DNA of 64,000 nucleotides. Origin: Octopus vulgaris (lineage: Eukaryota). The translations under genes and the position numbers were made by a program. The notes under the pieces are model-generated. The model searched no databases. It saw nothing but the letters and a program-made list of their open reading frames with translations, and was not told the DNA's origin. Below, in pieces: positions 6,447-64,000 of this stretch. The stretch is taken from the NCBI GenBank assembly GCA_951406725.2, contig OX597829.1:26040001-26104000 (forward strand). The letters run 5' to 3'. The stretch's first letter is position 1, and every line of letters begins with the position of its first letter.

Positions 6447-6464
6447 TTTTTCTATGTTTTTCAG
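6447..6464 (+). promoter_or_regulatory. 3' splice acceptor of the coding exon
   Basis: Pyrimidine tract plus CAG at the point where intron-like (ATT)n sequence switches to the open reading frame. Confidence 0.65.
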
Positions 6465-8075
6465 AGACCCGAATCGGAATTGCGGTTTGACAATAGGGCA
6501 GCACAAGGAGAGCCAACAAATAGAATAGCCGAAACTATGATTGAGAACAGTCGGAATTTCCCCTCTTCTGGAAATACTGCATTTCTCGTGCCTTCCATTT
6601 CAGCCACTCCAATGCCACCATCATTGACATCATTTTCTCAGTCACAGTCTATGACAGCACCCCTTCTAACAACACCATCTATCGATGGAGCCCTGTCCTA
6701 TTCAGACAACAAACACCACCCTTACCCTCCGATACCTCTTAGACAAAGAGACTTACCAGCTTCCTTTTGGCAGGAGCCAAACTCACAAACCAGACAACGC
6801 TGTCTTGACCACTTAGCAGCGGCTGCTGCTGGACTATCTCATACCTCTCTCCAATCTCGTTCTTCCACACTTTCAGGATCTTCTCAATTAGCATCAAATT
6901 CTTTCCTGTCTTCATCTCCAATGTCTTCCAGTAACTCTCATTTCCTTCCCTTCCTTGCACTCTATCCAGATCTTATGTTGTCCAACACTGCTTTTAATCG
7001 TTATGTGCGCCGACCCTCTCAGCTGAATCCAGCAGGAGATCTTGCATCATCAACTCCCTTGAATAGACTCAAGGGTGGAACTTTAAACAGTAGCATTGGT
7101 GATGCTGTCCAACAGAATGGAAGATTAAATCCATACAGTGCTCAAAGGACTCAGTCACGTTTCCCAATTACAGAATATCTTTACAATATGTACGGTTCTA
7201 AATATCGCTATGCAAACCCTGTTGTTTTACAGCAAACTCCACCACTTTCTGAGAAAACCTGGGATGATGTACGTATCAAAATGATTGAAGCTAATAACAG
7301 GAGTAATACTCACCACTCCACTGAAGCCAATGAGAAGTTAAACTCTAATAAAAACTCTAAACATGACGACATAGTAAACAACCCTATAAACAGCCAAATA
7401 TATTTGAAACGGAGGGCTTCTGATAACCACATCAAGTCATTGGATGACAGCGTTCTGCCATTATTGTCTTTGCAGTCATTGCAAACCTCATCCTCCTCTT
7501 CCTCTCCAACTGATAAAAATGCTACTATTAAAACAGCTGGCACTGCTCTCTCTGAGAGAGCTGCTGACTTTAGTTTGCGGTTGTCAGACTGTTATAAATC
7601 ATCAACCAAACATTCGCCCCATTCTCGCCTTTCTGATGGCATGCTCTTTGATAATTCTGTAAATGACAGTGACCAGCTGAACAATGCTCGGTGTGTCTGC
7701 TGTGATGTTCTGAAAGATTCCTGTCCAAATCAACCAAAAAGAAACAACAGTAACAGCCTTAGCCAGACCAATAATGGAACATCTGTGAGCACAGCCACAA
7801 ATGACAATGCTACTCTTGCTACCACTAATAATTCCTCAAATCCTGGTGAACTTGGCTTTCTTCCATATTTCCAGGTTTTCCCCCACCTGTGGCCACCATT
7901 TCCTCCCCCTCTACCTCCTTCAGCAAGTCTATCTTTAGCAGCAACAGCTACAGCCAGGGAAAGATATCTCCCAGATAATATATATGCCTACAGTAATCAA
8001 GAACGTAGCATCCGTTTAATGAGGCCCAGAAGCACTCTAGGAGCTCGCTACCATCCCTTTGGTGATGTTCGTTAA
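6465..8075 (+). CDS. Large coding exon of a low-complexity (Ser/Asn/Pro-rich) protein with a YAP/Yorkie/FAM181-type TEAD-binding omega-loop; FAM181-like candidate
   Basis: The only long non-repetitive, non-transposon ORF (531 codons, TAA at 8073-8075). It is preceded by a polypyrimidine tract and CAG acceptor (ttttctatgtttttcag, ending 6464), with an in-frame stop at 6444-6446. First ATG is at 6537 (aaactATGa). Motif IPLRQRDLPASFWQEP (6732-6779) resembles YAP PMRLRKLPDSFF and FAM181A PMRKRQLPASFWEEP (recalled from memory). C-terminus is RPRSTLGARYHPF. Confidence 0.85.
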   Translation, partial: RPESELRFDNRAAQGEPTNRIAETMIENSRNFPSSGNTAFLVPSISATPMPPSLTSFSQSQSMTAPLLTTPSIDGALSYSDNKHHPYPPIPLRQRDLPASFWQEPNSQTRQRCLDHLAAAAAGLSHTSLQSRSSTLSGSSQLASNSFLSSSPMSSSNSHFLPFLALYPDLMLSNTAFNRYVRRPSQLNPAGDLASSTPLNRLKGGTLNSSIGDAVQQNGRLNPYSAQRTQSRFPITEYLYNMYGSKYRYANPVVLQQTPPLSEKTWDDVRIKMIEANNRSNTHHSTEANEKLNSNKNSKHDDIVNNPINSQIYLKRRASDNHIKSLDDSVLPLLSLQSLQTSSSSSSPTDKNATIKTAGTALSERAADFSLRLSDCYKSSTKHSPHSRLSDGMLFDNSVNDSDQLNNARCVCCDVLKDSCPNQPKRNNSNSLSQTNNGTSVSTATNDNATLATTNNSSNPGELGFLPYFQVFPHLWPPFPPPLPPSASLSLAATATARERYLPDNIYAYSNQERSIRLMRPRSTLGARYHPFGDVR

Positions 8076-26399: not shown

Positions 26400-28865
26400 A
26401 ATCGTGTTTCTTGACAGGGTGAAAATGATCAAACCTCTATAACATTTTTAAAACATTTTTCTGGAAGAAGTTGACTAACTCCAGCAATTTAACTAGGAAA
26501 GGTACATTAATGTGCCAAATTATAAAATTTTCGATAAACTCTAATTTTTGAAATGCTGGCAGCCAAACGAACTAGATCCGTATTTGATCCAGTAAAGACG
26601 TGTCATCTGACTCTGCTCTATTGACTTCTTCTCTTTGGGAATACCATACTGCCTTTCTAACGCCATCTGTAGAAATTCGCTTTCACATTTTCACTTTACT
26701 GATACCTCCAGTCAAGAAAATTTATCGACAATACAGTAGTGATTATTTATGATTTGGATTTATTCCCTCTCTTCAGAACTGTCCGTTATCAATGTGCCTT
26801 TTTTGCCATTAAATACTGACCAACGAAGCAATGAAACCTTCACGCTTGATGCAAAGCATTCTGACAAGAAGGACAAGCCGTTATCATACTTTTTGCAACT
26901 GAGCTCCTCTTTCAAAAAGTAAATACAAACATTCAACACGCTAATCCAGGAAACTAGTAAACAGGAGAATGGCGGATTGATTACATTGCTTGTTGCTAAG
27001 TCTGGGAAGTCCCACACAATTGGAGAAACATTACTTTGCCGTTATCGAAGAGGTTTTGTCAACTGTTATGCACAAAATACCCGATAACATTATGAAGATC
27101 CCACTTAGTAAAAACACAATTTCTCGAAGCATCGATGAAATGACCAACGACGTCAAACCTCAGCTCATTAATATTCTCCAGCGTTCTGAATTTTCTATAC
27201 AAGTGAATGAGTCAACTGTTGTGGACAATCAATGTTTGATGATGGTATATGTTCGGTATTTCAGCGAAGACCTTCAACCTTGTGAGGAAATACTGTTCAC
27301 AGAGAAATTGCCGCTTGATTCAAAAGGTGCGATTATTTTTCACACTCTCAAGTCTTTCCTTTTTGAACATAATATCCCACTCAGTAATATTCTTGCCTGT
27401 GCGTCTGATGGAACCCCTTCGATGATAGGAAGATATAGAGGTCTTTCATCTCTCCCAAAGCGTGAAATTCCCCACCAGATACTAACTGTTCATTGCTTGG
27501 CACACCGGCAGCATTTTGTGGCAAAAAATATGAACAGTAGATTGAATGATGCGCTATAGTTAGTTACCAAGATTGTGAACAAATTGAAGTCCAGTCCCTT
27601 GTCTGATCGAATTTTCCGTCAACTCTGTCTGAGAAATGATGAGGACCATACTAAACTCTTATACCATACCAAAGTGCGGTGGTTGTCAAAAGGAAACTGT
27701 GTTTTATGCTTTGTTCAACTATTTCATATTATCATATCTTGCTTTGAAGATGCTCTACTATTCGCTTCATTGATGGCTGCAAGGTACGATATCTTTTTTC
27801 TCTGTGATATATTCACAAAATTAAATAATTTGAATACGTTATTGCAAGGAAACAGAAAAATTCTCGTTGATGGTAAACCATTTATCACTACCTTCATTTT
27901 GTAATTGGTTTTGTATAAGACTAACATTTCAAAACGTCAATTCCATCAATTTCCAGAACTTGATTCTTTGAAAGATGAATTAGTTGATGAGGATTTAACT
28001 ACATATCGCAACTATTTGCAAGCATTGCACGATAACATGGTGGGGCGATTTCAAGATGTTATTGCGGTGAATATTCCAAATTGGTATAGCAATCCGTTTG
28101 AGGTCGATGCAGTCGATTGCGAGGGTGACGTTCAGGAAGAATTGATAGAATTACAAAATGACAATGACGCCACAATACGATATTGCCGCAATAGCAAAGA
28201 AGGTTTGCGGTACCATCAGAGTATATTGAATTCTTATCCCAGTCTGTTGAAACATCTGAAATTACTCTTGCTTGCCTTCCCTACCTCATGACTGGTTGAA
28301 TCTGGTTTTAACCATGTTGGAATATTATTTTCCCATAAAAGAATCAGACTGGATGTGATATAACGAGGAGACATGTGGCTAAAGTCGACAAGTTTGAAAC
28401 CGAATGTATCTGCACTGGCTGCATCGCACCAGACACATGGTTCTCATTAAAAAGTTTTATTCTTTTCCTTTATAATACAATCATTAATTATTTTTGCATC
28501 GGTAGTTCTAATCAATGGTTCATTTGGAGAAAATGAAAATCAGTGTAAAAGAGAGCGCAAGTTTTCAGAAGTTAATATGTCTGCATAATATAGAGTTAAT
28601 GCTAGAATTTTATGTACACTAATGGCAAAACTAAACCCACAATGTGGGATTTGTAAACAACCGCATATTTAGTCCAAACGGCACTAACAGGGCAACGAGT
28701 CTACGATATAGTGTGTATTACAAATGATACAAGGGTTCCTGGGGGATTTTGTCTTGGGGAGGTTGTGTCCGGGTTTTTTTTTTCAAAAAGGTGGGCGATG
28801 GAGCATTTTTTAGCCGATAGGTAGGCGATATTGTAATTTGGCGCGAAAAGTTTGGGAAACACTTG
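26400..28865 (+). mobile_element. hAT (Charlie/Buster-type) DNA transposon, decayed
   Basis: Contains the transposase pseudogene. Right end gtttgggaaacacttg resembles a Charlie-type TIR. The left TIR is not clearly identifiable, so the left boundary is approximate. Confidence 0.75.
26700..28450 (+). pseudogene. hAT Buster/Charlie transposase pseudogene (ZBED5/ZBED8/FAM200/SCAND3-like)
   Basis: Motifs RQYSSDYL*FGF, IPLSKNTISRSIDEM, FSIQVNEST, CASDGTPSMIG, VHCLAHRQH, LLYHTKVRWLSKG, LLAFPTS*LVESGF. In-frame stops at 27557, 27902 and 28289, with frameshifts upstream. Confidence 0.92.
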
Positions 28866-35009: not shown

Positions 35010-35085
<76 letters not shown>

Positions 35086-35187
35086 GGAGTAAACACATAA
35101 ATGTGAAACAAGGTGAAAAAAAGAGTACTCAAATTCTAGTGGTAGAGTAATATGCTTTATTTAAAGCAGCAGAAAATTCAACAAAAC

Positions 35188-35225
35188 CTGTTACTCTGAG
35201 TTTCCCGTTGCCGTTCATCGGACAG
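35188..35225 (-). ncRNA. Minimal hammerhead ribozyme motif (CCGAUGA core variant)
   Basis: Minus strand: ctgt CCGATGA acg gcaa cgg GAAAC tcaga GTA acag; stem I ctgt/acag. Confidence 0.6.
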
Positions 35226-35230
35226 TTTTT

Positions 35231-35392
35231 GCAGGAGTGGCTGTGTGGTAAGTAGCTTGCTAACCAACCACATGGTTCCGAGTTCAATCCCACTGCGTGG
35301 CATCTTGGGCAAGTGTCTTCTGCTATAGCCCCGGGCCGACCAATGCCTTGTGAGTGGATCTGGTAGACGGAAACTGAAAGAAGCCCGTCGTA

Positions 35393-35445
<53 letters not shown>

Positions 35446-35663
35446 ATGTTTGTGTGTCTGTGTTTGTCCCCCTAGTGTCAAACGATGTGGTGTGTTTACG
35501 TCCCCGTCACCTAGCGGTTCGGCAAAAGAGACCGATAGAATAAGTACTGGGCTTACAAAGAATAAGTCCCGGGGTCGATTTGCTCGACTAAAGGCGGTGC
35601 TCCAGCATGGCCGCAGTCAAATGACTGAAGCAAATAAAAGAGTAAAAGAGTAAAGAGTAAAGA
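35231..35663 (+). mobile_element. tRNA-derived SINE family A, CpG-intact copy
   Basis: A box TGGCTGTGTGG, B box GAGTTCAATCCC, (gagtaaa)n tail. Confidence 0.88.
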
Positions 35664-35664
35664 G

Positions 35665-35752
<88 letters not shown>

Positions 35753-35757
<5 letters not shown>

Positions 35758-36263
35758 TTCTAGCACATATTTCGCCTTTTAATGTACTGATATATGAATA
35801 ATATATGGCCTGAGCTAGTTTCACCAGCGATAATAATTAATTTTATTTTATCGCAATTTGACTTGTTTACATATTTCTCGATAAATTTTGAGCGTTAGAC
35901 AATATACCAGAAATCCCTAGTTTTGTCGGGACGTTCTGAGTCTGCGCAGTGATCTGATTAGTTAGAGAGAGCAAATCATTAGAAGCACATGCTTCTAGTG
36001 AGTTAGGATCTCAGAACAACAGGGCTCTTACCGATGAATTCTCCCTGAGCAAATAAATTATCTTTATTGCTGAAAAGAACGAAACTGCAGTCTAAGAGGA
36101 ACCGAGTTAGTAAATGTTCTTATTTTCATTTCACTAAATTTATCTAGCTTCTGTGTTTCTAGCACATATTTCGCCTTTTAATGTACTGATATATGAATAA
36201 TATATGGCCTGAGCTAGTTTCACCAGCGATAATAATTAATTTTATTTTATCGCAATTTGACTT

Positions 36264-36268
<5 letters not shown>
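35753..36268 (+). mobile_element. Terminally redundant 399-bp non-coding unit carrying a hammerhead (retrozyme or Penelope pseudo-LTR-like)
   Basis: A ~115-bp exact direct repeat at 35753-35869 and 36152-36268 (period 399), flanked by TG/TA microsatellites, with a hammerhead inside. Confidence 0.75.
36025..36098 (+). ncRNA. Type I hammerhead ribozyme
   Basis: ctctta CCGATGA [extended stem II] GAAAC TGCA GTC taagag. Perfect 6-bp stem I, palindromic stem III ACTGCAGT, GUC cleavage triplet at 36090-36092. Confidence 0.78.
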
Positions 36269-36354
<86 letters not shown>

Positions 36355-62299: not shown

Positions 62300-64000
62300 A
62301 GGGACCCCTCTTTCATCTGCGTTTTGAGAATTTTGCTGCCTTTTTGTTGAGTGAGTTCGTATTTTTGTTCGTCGTTGTTTGTGTTTACTCGTGAATTGAA
62401 CAGTTGTCCGTTGTGTAACAGTAATTTTCGCCCTACGGGGCGGAAAATTCTGTGTTTAAACATTGTCATTACCTTCGAGGTAATTTTTTTGAAACATTTG
62501 TTCTCATAATTTGAGAAATGGAGTTCGACTTGGCGTCGAGGAGCGACTTTCCCGTGATGGGAAAAGGCGAACAAAAGGATACCGAAGTCAAAAAACAGTC
62601 TTTTTCGGCCGCAGTGGGCGGAACTGTAACGGATGTAGAATTTAAGATTGAACAGTTATTCGAATACCGGAACTTGGTAAAAACGGAAGGCAATGAAATT
62701 AAACTGGTACCGCCGCAAGCGAAGGTACAGGAAATAAAGGCAAAGACAGTTGTATACAAAGTTTATAGCAACAAAGAAAAAAAAATAATGGATGTCAAGA
62801 ACGAGATAGTAGAAAAGTGCTTGTCCCCGGTGTGGAACAAAATTCGCCACGTTGTTCGAGGTGCTCGCAGCGCTACCGTTGAAGCACATTTCGACTCGGC
62901 TGATGTGGCAAGAGAGGTGTCATCAATGACCTTGAAAAATGAGGATATCATGTTGCTACCTTCGTATATGGGGAAAAGAACAGCCAAACTATATGTAGAG
63001 GATATACCAAGAGGGTATGATATAATGTGGGTAGCAGCGGCAGTCCTGCACAACGTAGAGCGGGAAGTTTCAATTCTGCAGATGAGAAGGAAAGAGGAGG
63101 TGCACTGGAAAGGACAAGTGCTAGAACTCCTCGTTCAAGCAGAAAATAAGATATTAGAAAACTTACCCGATAGGGTATTCAATGAGGAGGGGACTTCAAT
63201 GAGAGTGTCAGTGGAGGGGCGCAGACCTAGGTGCTTCAAATGTGGCGAAAAGGGTCACGTCCGGTCAAACTGCATAAAAAAAAGAGAATCAACGAAGCCC
63301 CTCCTCAAAGTGCTTCAAACACTGAAAAAGAAAAGGCGGAAAAGGAACCCAAGACTGCGACAAGGAAAGGAACCGAAACGGAAGATGAAAACGAACAAAT
63401 GGAATATACACAGGTGACACACAAAAGAAAAAAAGATAACACCCTGAACTCCCCTCCCCAAACAAAGAAAAAATCAGCAAACACCGCAGAGATACATACA
63501 AAACAAATTCCCCAGCCCTACCCCCACGGCACTGTATTCATTGGAACACAGTTCGCCAAGCCCCTCCCCATAAAACAAGATTTGAAAAAATTGATAAAAA
63601 AAAATGAAAAGATTATAGCATTTGACGAGAAGAACGATAGGGTGTACAAGTATTTCAAATTTTCAAAATTTAAACTATTCAGTAAGTCTACAGACACAAA
63701 ATCAACCACTCGCTTTGCAAAAATAAAGGAAGACGAGTGGAAGGAAAAAACACTACAAGAACATTTAAAGAATAATCTTATCAGAGATGTAACGAATGAA
63801 ATACTGGAGGGTAAACTTATTATAACCCCGGCAACCACACCTACCCAGAGCCCGATGGCAACGCCGGTTAAGAGCCCTGCAGCTACGACCACAAGGGAGG
63901 AAGAAGGGGAAGCAGGCAGATTTAAACTGTCATGCTCCCTGTCCCAACCGTAAGTTTATTTATTTTTTCTCTCTCCGACAATGGCAAAGCTGGGTTGTGT
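62300..64000 (+). mobile_element. Young L1/Tx1-clade LINE, 5' part (5' UTR, ORF1, start of ORF2), running off the window
   Basis: ORF1 has a CCHC knuckle and is homologous to the remnant at 21.3-21.8 kb. After a short spacer, the ATG at 63981 (MAKLGC..) matches the start of the endonuclease (cf. VLRVCCI at 22265). The 5' boundary is approximate. Confidence 0.8.
62518..63953 (+). CDS. LINE ORF1 (gag-like, CCHC zinc knuckle), split by a -1 frame change at an A8 run
   Basis: 62518-63417 contains CFKCGEKGHVRSNC; the overlapping frame 63231-63953 continues after A8 at 63276-63283. Confidence 0.75.

Follow-up and report, generated by a model that had tools for sequence, protein, structure and literature searches.

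Metazoan retrozymes without long terminal repeats (non-LTR retrozymes) have been described as multicopy, head-to-tail repeats with units of 150 to 450 bp, one type I hammerhead ribozyme per unit, a GC content below 50%, and neither a long terminal repeat (LTR) nor an open reading frame (ORF) (Cervera and de la Pena 2020, PMC7229834). They give circular RNAs, include a mussel family with units of 350 to 390 nt, and have been proposed to be mobilized by Penelope-like elements (PMC7229834). Retrozymes of vertebrates have been interpreted as nonautonomous Penelope-like elements (Li, Clavereau, and Pollet 2026, bioRxiv 10.64898/2026.07.22.740005) in a study whose 35 genomes, according to its available text, include no mollusc. 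Published work already covers the class as such, its occurrence as circular RNA, a mollusc family of comparable unit size, and the connection with Penelope-like elements. Two steps of the life cycle of this class are still proposals, namely, the use of circles as templates and the identity of the copying enzyme. Ribozymes of autonomous Penelope-like elements have also been described (PMC4209133). Elements of the Neptune clade target microsatellites, and those of the Hydra clade, including Hydra-1_Obim of Octopus bimaculoides, target (TA)n and carry a hammerhead close to their 3′ ends (Craig et al. 2021, PMC8557442). For the Poseidon element PAc, reverse transcription starts at a fixed internal position downstream of the ribozyme, and insertion is into AT-rich DNA (Frangieh et al. 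2024, PMC11167929).

The octopus family described here was analyzed from one copy in a window, i.e., the whole stretch of 64,000 nt under study, and from the genome that contains it. It shares the general features of metazoan non-LTR retrozymes, with units of 396 to 399 nt and a GC content of 34%, and resembles those of Xenopus (bioRxiv 10.64898/2026.07.22.740005) in the co-occurrence of intact Penelope-like elements, in the presence of monomers, dimers, and multimers, and in that activity is expected only from loci with two ribozymes. It differs in having a fixed 3′ end and strict targeting of (TA)n, neither of which is described in the available text of PMC7229834, in a ribozyme core with U4C and A10.1·C11.1, and in a unit that folds no better than shuffled sequences (z = −0.92), strong self-pairing being a described tendency and not a definition of the class. 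In the octopus family, cleavage and circles are predicted. No cephalopod example was found in the available text of PMC7229834, and a search of published papers detected no report of a retrozyme from a cephalopod; for the giant squid genome, a count of 235 hammerheads has been published. Because it has a single fixed site of priming, a simple target in (TA)n, intact candidate enzymes of two clades with distinct footprints, and a natural series of ribozyme cores, this family is suited to a test of both of the steps that are still proposals.

Structure of the insertion in the window

The insertion is 516 nt in length, equivalent to approximately 1.3 units of 399 nt, and its terminal 117 nt are repeated exactly at a spacing of 399 nt (Table 1). 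An initial annotation of the window had claimed an exact direct repeat of ~115 bp with this period, the absence of a notable ORF, and borders of TG/TA microsatellites. All of these features were confirmed, the longest ATG frame in the doubled 399-nt unit being 34 codons. A second hammerhead motif, at 35188 to 35225, had also been noted for its C in place of U4; this motif is real, is located on the minus strand, and belongs to the terminal repeat of a different, protein-coding Penelope-like element.

Table 1. Features of the retrozyme insertion and adjoining DNA (window coordinates)
Positions	Strand	Feature	Remark
35084..35233	-	Hydra-clade Penelope-like element, solo terminal repeat	Own CCGATGA hammerhead (35188-35225); apart from the retrozyme
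35665..35752	.	5′ junction: (TA)n, then (TG)n	Target microsatellite
35753..36268	+	Retrozyme insertion, 1.3 noncoding 399-nt units	5′ truncated, fixed 3′ end
35753..35869	+	Terminal redundancy, first 117-nt copy	Exact match to 36152-36268; second template pass in the model
35860..35891	+	Inferred start of reverse transcription, internal copy TGTTT|ACATATT, then small hairpin	Common to subfamilies
36020..36047	+	CAGG (36020-23) and CCTG (36044-47), complementary	Near invariant in all subfamilies; no compensatory change seen
36025..36098	+	Type I hammerhead with U4C (36032), A10.1·C11.1 (36038/36080), and palindromic stem III (36084-91)	Predicted cut after 36092
36152..36268	+	Terminal redundancy, second copy	Terminates at the fixed 3′ end of the family (GACTTGTTT, then ATATAT)
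36269..36350	.	3′ junction: (TA)n	Target microsatellite

Between the two hammerhead elements of the window, all joined by (TA)n, are common short repeats (35234 to 35392 and 35477 to 35640) that are presumably SINE-like; similar sequences adjoin many other loci. Elsewhere on the plus strand, long open frames were labeled by eye as a low-complexity, host-exon-like frame of 542 codons (6447 to 8072), a transposase-like fragment (26981 to 27556), and a LINE ORF1-like region (62515 to 63950).

Copy number and subfamilies

A genome search with the unit produced 698 candidates, 40 of which were scored and represented 40 loci with full-unit identities of 91 to 100%. Exact pattern counts detected 233 hammerheads and 331 3′ termini running into (TA)n (control, 0 in both cases). 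The family, hence, occupies at least 331 places in the genome, and these counts dispose of a single-copy sequence with a local duplication, an outcome named in the initial annotation as incompatible with its reading. At 81 of 85 loci, the element ended at unit position 107 to 119, and the 3′ flank was TA rich at 79. Arrays of up to ~28 units and another of ~7 units were present. The ~28-unit array, which belongs to the U4 subfamily, is located on contig C5 at 112.64 to 112.65 Mb (L173 and L174) and retains the family 3′ end and (TA)n flanks. The recency and tandem organization previously proposed for the insertion are supported by the structure of the copies. A search with the monomer for tandem or circularly permuted copies had been suggested; tandem copies were found, but there was no free permutation, variation being confined to the 5′ end.

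An unrooted tree of 71 units contained a canonical subfamily (CUGAAGA, G-C; ~87% alike), intermediates, the C4 subfamily of the window, and a U4 subfamily with A·A plus a compensated U-A to C-G change in stem I. Subfamilies were 87 to 90% alike. The cores form a natural series, i.e., canonical, A·C, U4C with A·C, and A·A, and near-identical dispersed copies are present for all of them. The family is young, and the window copy is a young member. In one other copy, a 299-nt tRNA-like SINE flanked by repeated TGTGTTTCT is located within the retrozyme (L022:1898-2196).

Ends and lengths of unselected copies

An unselected sample was formed by taking, in genome order, the first 100 termini, with the 3′ end as the sole criterion. 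Lengths ranged from 23 to 1228 nt; 36 copies were longer than one unit, and two or more whole ribozymes were present in 7 (strict pattern) or 9 (by length). Upstream of the ribozyme there was always the previous unit, (TA)n, or an unrelated flank; no shared upstream sequence or Penelope ORF was found in the 100 copies, and the ORFs near three loci (L142, L148, and L156) were separated from the retrozyme by (TA)n or other inserts. With 36 copies longer than one unit and no continuation into a Penelope ORF in any of the 100, this family is a non-LTR retrozyme, a new member of an already known class, and not the ordinary pseudo-LTR that the initial annotation had put forward as the alternative. 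The single fixed end combined with random 5′ truncation on many contigs is the pattern of reverse transcription.

The 5′ ends were not evenly distributed. Stops recurred on every turn at 23 to 60 nt and 126 to 200 nt from the end, with densities of 5.4 to 6.9 per 1000 nt versus 1.2 to 2.3 elsewhere, and coincided with a predicted hairpin and with the 3′ strand of an extended stem I; such stops are expected equally from a circular or a multimeric template. A sharp fall in 5′ stops at the cut site was absent (5.9 versus 5.4 per 1000 nt). Four of the 100 copies started exactly at this site (~0.5 to 1 expected; P = 0.002 to 0.02), a weak hint of cleaved templates. None of these four is C4, but a C4 copy in the selected set (L093) does start there. 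At the 5′ junctions of L088, L162, L223, L233, L252, L017, and L019, the first 6 to 20 bases of the element were repeated and separated by (TA)n; by eye, these are apparent restarts during joining.

At the 3′ end, the 100 termini listed switched to (TA)n after GTTT in 90 copies, two bases later in 6, and two bases earlier in 4, the search pattern having admitted only these three forms. Registers 2 nt apart are what pairing with a dinucleotide repeat predicts. The internal ACAUAU matches (AT)n at five of six bases, and a simple reading of the termini is that the nicked repeat pairs with this sequence. The PAc element differs in that its start is not homologous to the cut DNA and there are two start sites (PMC11167929), whereas the retrozyme start resembles its target and the ends step by 2 nt.

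The hammerhead ribozyme and its variants

The window hammerhead consists of stem I (36025-30/36093-98), the core CCGATGA (36031-37), stem II (36039-42/36076-79) with a distal hairpin, GAAA (36081-84), and the self-complementary ACTGCAGT followed by GTC. The initial annotation had described an intact, minimal type I hammerhead with a palindromic stem III and C in place of U4. The type, the predicted cut site, the palindrome, and the C at 36032 were all verified. The ribozyme is, however, not minimal, as stem II bears a long extension, and intact is too strong a word for it, as U4C is accompanied by A10.1·C11.1, a deviation that had been overlooked, at a pair (G10.1-C11.1) that is normally conserved in hammerheads (PMC4209133). 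The suggested comparison with Rfam Hammerhead_1 produced a match with E = 8.8e-5 whose score, 29.4 bits, did not reach the gathering score of 34; a scan of the whole 64,000-nt window at the latter score gave no hits.

Both deviations are fixed in the window subfamily, and a sister subfamily is fully canonical. Decay of the window copy was rejected as an explanation of U4C, which is carried by 15 of 45 unselected loci, the other 30 having U. Catalytic positions and the palindrome were fixed in the unselected set, with variation at N7, H17, position 4, and 10.1/11.1. Across subfamilies the catalytic positions were invariant, while stems I and II changed in compensated pairs; this count used 16 variants chosen with a core-requiring pattern, which renders the core invariance partly circular, and was repeated on the unselected set. 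Conservation of the core relative to the background was borderline (P = 0.21 as aligned and 0.05 after correction of one alignment gap).

The hammerhead of the window copy is not the favored fold in silico: stem I had a probability of 0.05, the hammerhead fold was 2.7 kcal above the minimum, and folding favored a CAGGG/CCCUG helix. When the unit was folded as a circle, 60% was paired. The complementary CAGG and CCTG segments could form a predicted activating pseudoknot between stems I and II, of a kind on record for hammerheads (PMC3088659), or a competing helix acting as an off switch. The two core deviations should lower the activity of the window ribozyme, and a core with U4C and A·C is predicted to be weak. 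A U4C change lowers in vitro activity but still permits viroid infection (PMC3088659), and a retrozyme of the axolotl whose stem II has a mismatch at its base cleaves well as a dimer but weakly by itself (PMC7229834); of nine dimers of Xenopus retrozymes, eight showed no cleavage in vitro (bioRxiv 10.64898/2026.07.22.740005). On balance, we slightly favor cleavage at a useful rate by the U4C subfamily. The window copy, with one ribozyme only, cannot release a unit by itself and would be a dead end. U4C is recurrent in this genome, since the CCGA core is also present in both intact Hydra families and, together with the canonical form, in a third repeat family (see below); searches demanding CUGANGA would, therefore, miss many of its ribozymes. 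At L005 and L094, both units of the locus carry substitutions that should abolish ribozyme function (C3G; C17G). Other, unrelated hammerhead-like motifs are located near retrozyme and Hydra copies (L143, L156, L260, and L261).

Intact Penelope-like elements in the genome

Three intact Penelope-like families, all ending in (TA)n, share the genome with the retrozyme. Hydra A (7359 candidates; L105 to L107), to which the solo terminal repeat at 35084 to 35233 of the window belongs, retains in many copies a 727-codon frame with RWK, DKT, a CxCx5C linker, and CxxC and CxH motifs; a Pfam scan of this frame matched no families. Hydra C (L273 to L287) is a second Hydra-type family, 44% identical to Hydra A, with a 717-codon frame, a tandem period of 2590 nt, and a hammerhead with a G10.1·U11.1 pair. 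The Neptune-type family (17121 candidates; L288 to L321) has frames of 1200 to 1214 codons, a period of ~4.48 kb, DKG, a CX2-5CxxC linker, a C-terminal GIY-YIG with CCHH, and the hammerhead core TTGAAGA. Clades were called from motifs rather than a tree, by comparison with the published list for Hydra (PMC8557442) and with the addition of a by-eye match to Neptune1_Ap for Neptune. A protein homolog search produced 1070 hits, nearly all unnamed. Fragments of the genome match the published start of Hydra-1_Obim by eye (PMC8557442).

Xenopus families have been linked to the terminal repeats of Penelope-like elements by homology (bioRxiv 10.64898/2026.07.22.740005), whereas the octopus link is an insertion footprint: in blastn and shuffle comparisons with Hydra A, Hydra C, and the Neptune-type family, including their terminal repeats, the best local matches of the retrozyme did not exceed those of shuffled sequences; other families may exist. 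A search with the start-site pattern detected, among the 100 matches listed, the retrozyme family and one Hydra A copy. A relaxed ribozyme pattern, used to search for a partner, detected one deleted copy and an unrelated family of 678 matches (control, 4). This third hammerhead repeat (L108 to L137) has a TGCA loop, CUGA and CCGA cores, two 3′ ends, inverted pairs, and pairs ~353 nt apart; beyond the loop, which it shares, it has no similarity to the 399-nt unit.

The retrozyme has features of a nonautonomous Penelope-like element, i.e., a fixed 3′ end, 5′ truncation, partial tandem units, and a microsatellite target. This structure supports the Penelope-type mobilization proposed in the initial annotation, and we regard mobilization by some element of this group as highly probable. 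The footprints of the candidate helpers differ. Neptune-type copies have a single 3′ end in (TA)n, at which the template reads GTT|ATATATT, and simple 5′ truncation; in Hydra A, 3′ ends occur at two positions separated by 66 nt, and inverted arms are common. An inverted arm adjoined 15 of 29 Hydra A loci, a lower bound because ~10 Hydra A loci reached the edge of the reference, and 10 of 11 Hydra C loci (25/40 in total), compared with 1 of 151 retrozyme loci and none of the 19 Neptune 5′ ends visible in 30 loci (P = 7e-20 and 2e-6 for the contrasts with Hydra). The Hydra helper that we had at first favored was abandoned in light of this count. As the one-armed, single-end footprint matches that of the Neptune-type family, we lean toward a helper of this clade rather than of the Hydra clade, on a resemblance of footprints that is not an identification; the retrozyme differs from Neptune elements in having no ORF, no detectable homology, and another hammerhead core. 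A Naiad helper was rejected on the basis of a published statement that cephalopod Naiads are old remnants.

Templates, proposed life cycle, and alternatives

The 178 junctions read at the cut site were all of equal length and free of jump scars, a result that speaks against jumps on a linear template unit. Stretches covered at least twice contained 109 locus-private alleles; 25 of these were present in every unit of the locus, including 11 in 9 loci shorter than two units. This count is based on 152 loci, less than half of the total of at least 331, and local duplication may have enlarged some arrays (L094 and L173). In a bias noticed after the fact, 15 of the 25 all-unit alleles were changes to G, compared with 14 of 83 for the rest (P = 6e-5), and in the short loci the proportion was 5 of 11 (P = 0.04). 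A-to-I editing was considered as the source of all-unit alleles and had no support (A>G, 5; T>C, 4). Overall unit identity does not favor a circle, as adjacent units differed by 1.37% and the nearest other locus by 1.27%. Given the scar-free junctions and the variants common to all units of a locus, we infer, rather than observe, that the template was probably circular. Of the circular and tandem RNA sources named in the initial annotation, the circular one is favored.

Our main reading, to which we assign a probability of roughly 0.65, is that the young window copy was written by a Penelope-like, probably Neptune-type, reverse transcriptase that went 1.3 times round a predicted circle produced by self-cleavage and religation. 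The few loci with two or more ribozymes would be transcribed and the RNA cut at each GUC, likely as dimers formed through the ACUGCAGU palindrome, and the released unit would be ligated into a circle. The helper protein would nick (TA)n, and the nicked strand would prime at the internal ACAUAU; copying would proceed round the circle, stalling at the same places on each turn, until the end of the cDNA was rejoined to (TA)n.

The rival with most claim on these data retains the family and the Penelope-type insertion but has as its template a linear, uncut multimer from long master arrays, with the ribozyme weak, a passenger, or a 5′-trimming device and the U4C subfamily spreading without cleavage. 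Such a template also predicts periodic stops and scar-free junctions; arrays of ~28 and ~7 units exist, 54 of the 100 unselected copies extend past the cut site, weak activity is predicted for the U4C/A·C core, and the Poseidon enzyme of PAc did not need cleavage for insertion in vitro (PMC11167929). It is, however, at odds with the all-unit private alleles of the nine short loci, which require that a single template base be copied two times and whose spectrum is unlike that of single-unit changes, as well as with a fixed core and compensated stems across subfamilies 87 to 90% alike and with the circles that described retrozymes form in coral, mussel, and axolotl (PMC7229834). We consider a linear template improbable.

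For the helper, the alternative of a Hydra-clade element has several attractions: Hydra elements target (TA)n, both intact Hydra families have a CCGA core, the window retrozyme is 520 nt from a Hydra end, and the Hydra A start site shares with the retrozyme a short TGTTTAC...TTTGAGCG arrangement. This common motif was no better than shuffled sequences (124/300; 14/200), and the Hydra footprint, with inverted arms in most copies and an additional tail in Hydra A, is not that of the retrozyme, which has one end and almost never an arm; we regard a Hydra helper as distinctly unlikely. Least likely, and largely refuted, are explanations without the proposed RNA step or with a larger source, namely, a DNA satellite or local duplication and the terminal repeat of an autonomous element yet to be found. 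Room for these is left by the loci that lie beyond the 152 examined and by possible local duplication at L094 and L173; the upstream sequences of the 100 unselected copies, the absence of an ORF, and the reverse-transcription pattern all stand against them.

A more far-reaching extension of the preferred circular, Neptune-type reading is that each insertion is a record of one circle, primed at ACAUAU and copied by a Neptune-type enzyme, and that the doubly mutated ribozyme has been tuned down. We hold this only tentatively and think it less likely to be right than wrong. If true, RNA changes would be written into every unit, and the subfamily with U4C and A10.1·C11.1 would spread because its ribozyme is tuned down or switched, by the CAGG/CCUG helix or the helper protein, such that the circle survives. 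Retrozymes of one genome would then sort by the clade of their helper, one-armed with Neptune and two-armed with Hydra.

Retrozyme sequences in assembled runs

Contigs of eight runs, none on record as RNA, were compared with the unit, which was covered wholly or partly in seven and not at all in one. The head-to-tail joint was present in these contigs but also exists in DNA, and tandem and circular forms are, hence, not separated by it; similarly, one 427-nt contig of run X18 spans one unit and fits both a circle and a tandem transcript. A comparison of the unit with the region upstream of 12 U2 genes as a promoter detected no match above shuffled sequences (best, 12/200). In run X2, a contig joined the unit (35874 to 36159) to a single-copy sequence of the reference genome (L138:1500-1530) in which, by eye, the first coding exon of a gene for a secreted protein may be present; this join was absent from the other seven runs and is possibly a chimera. 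In run X15, which is DNA sized and has another organism code, the U4 subfamily was dominant at very high depth.
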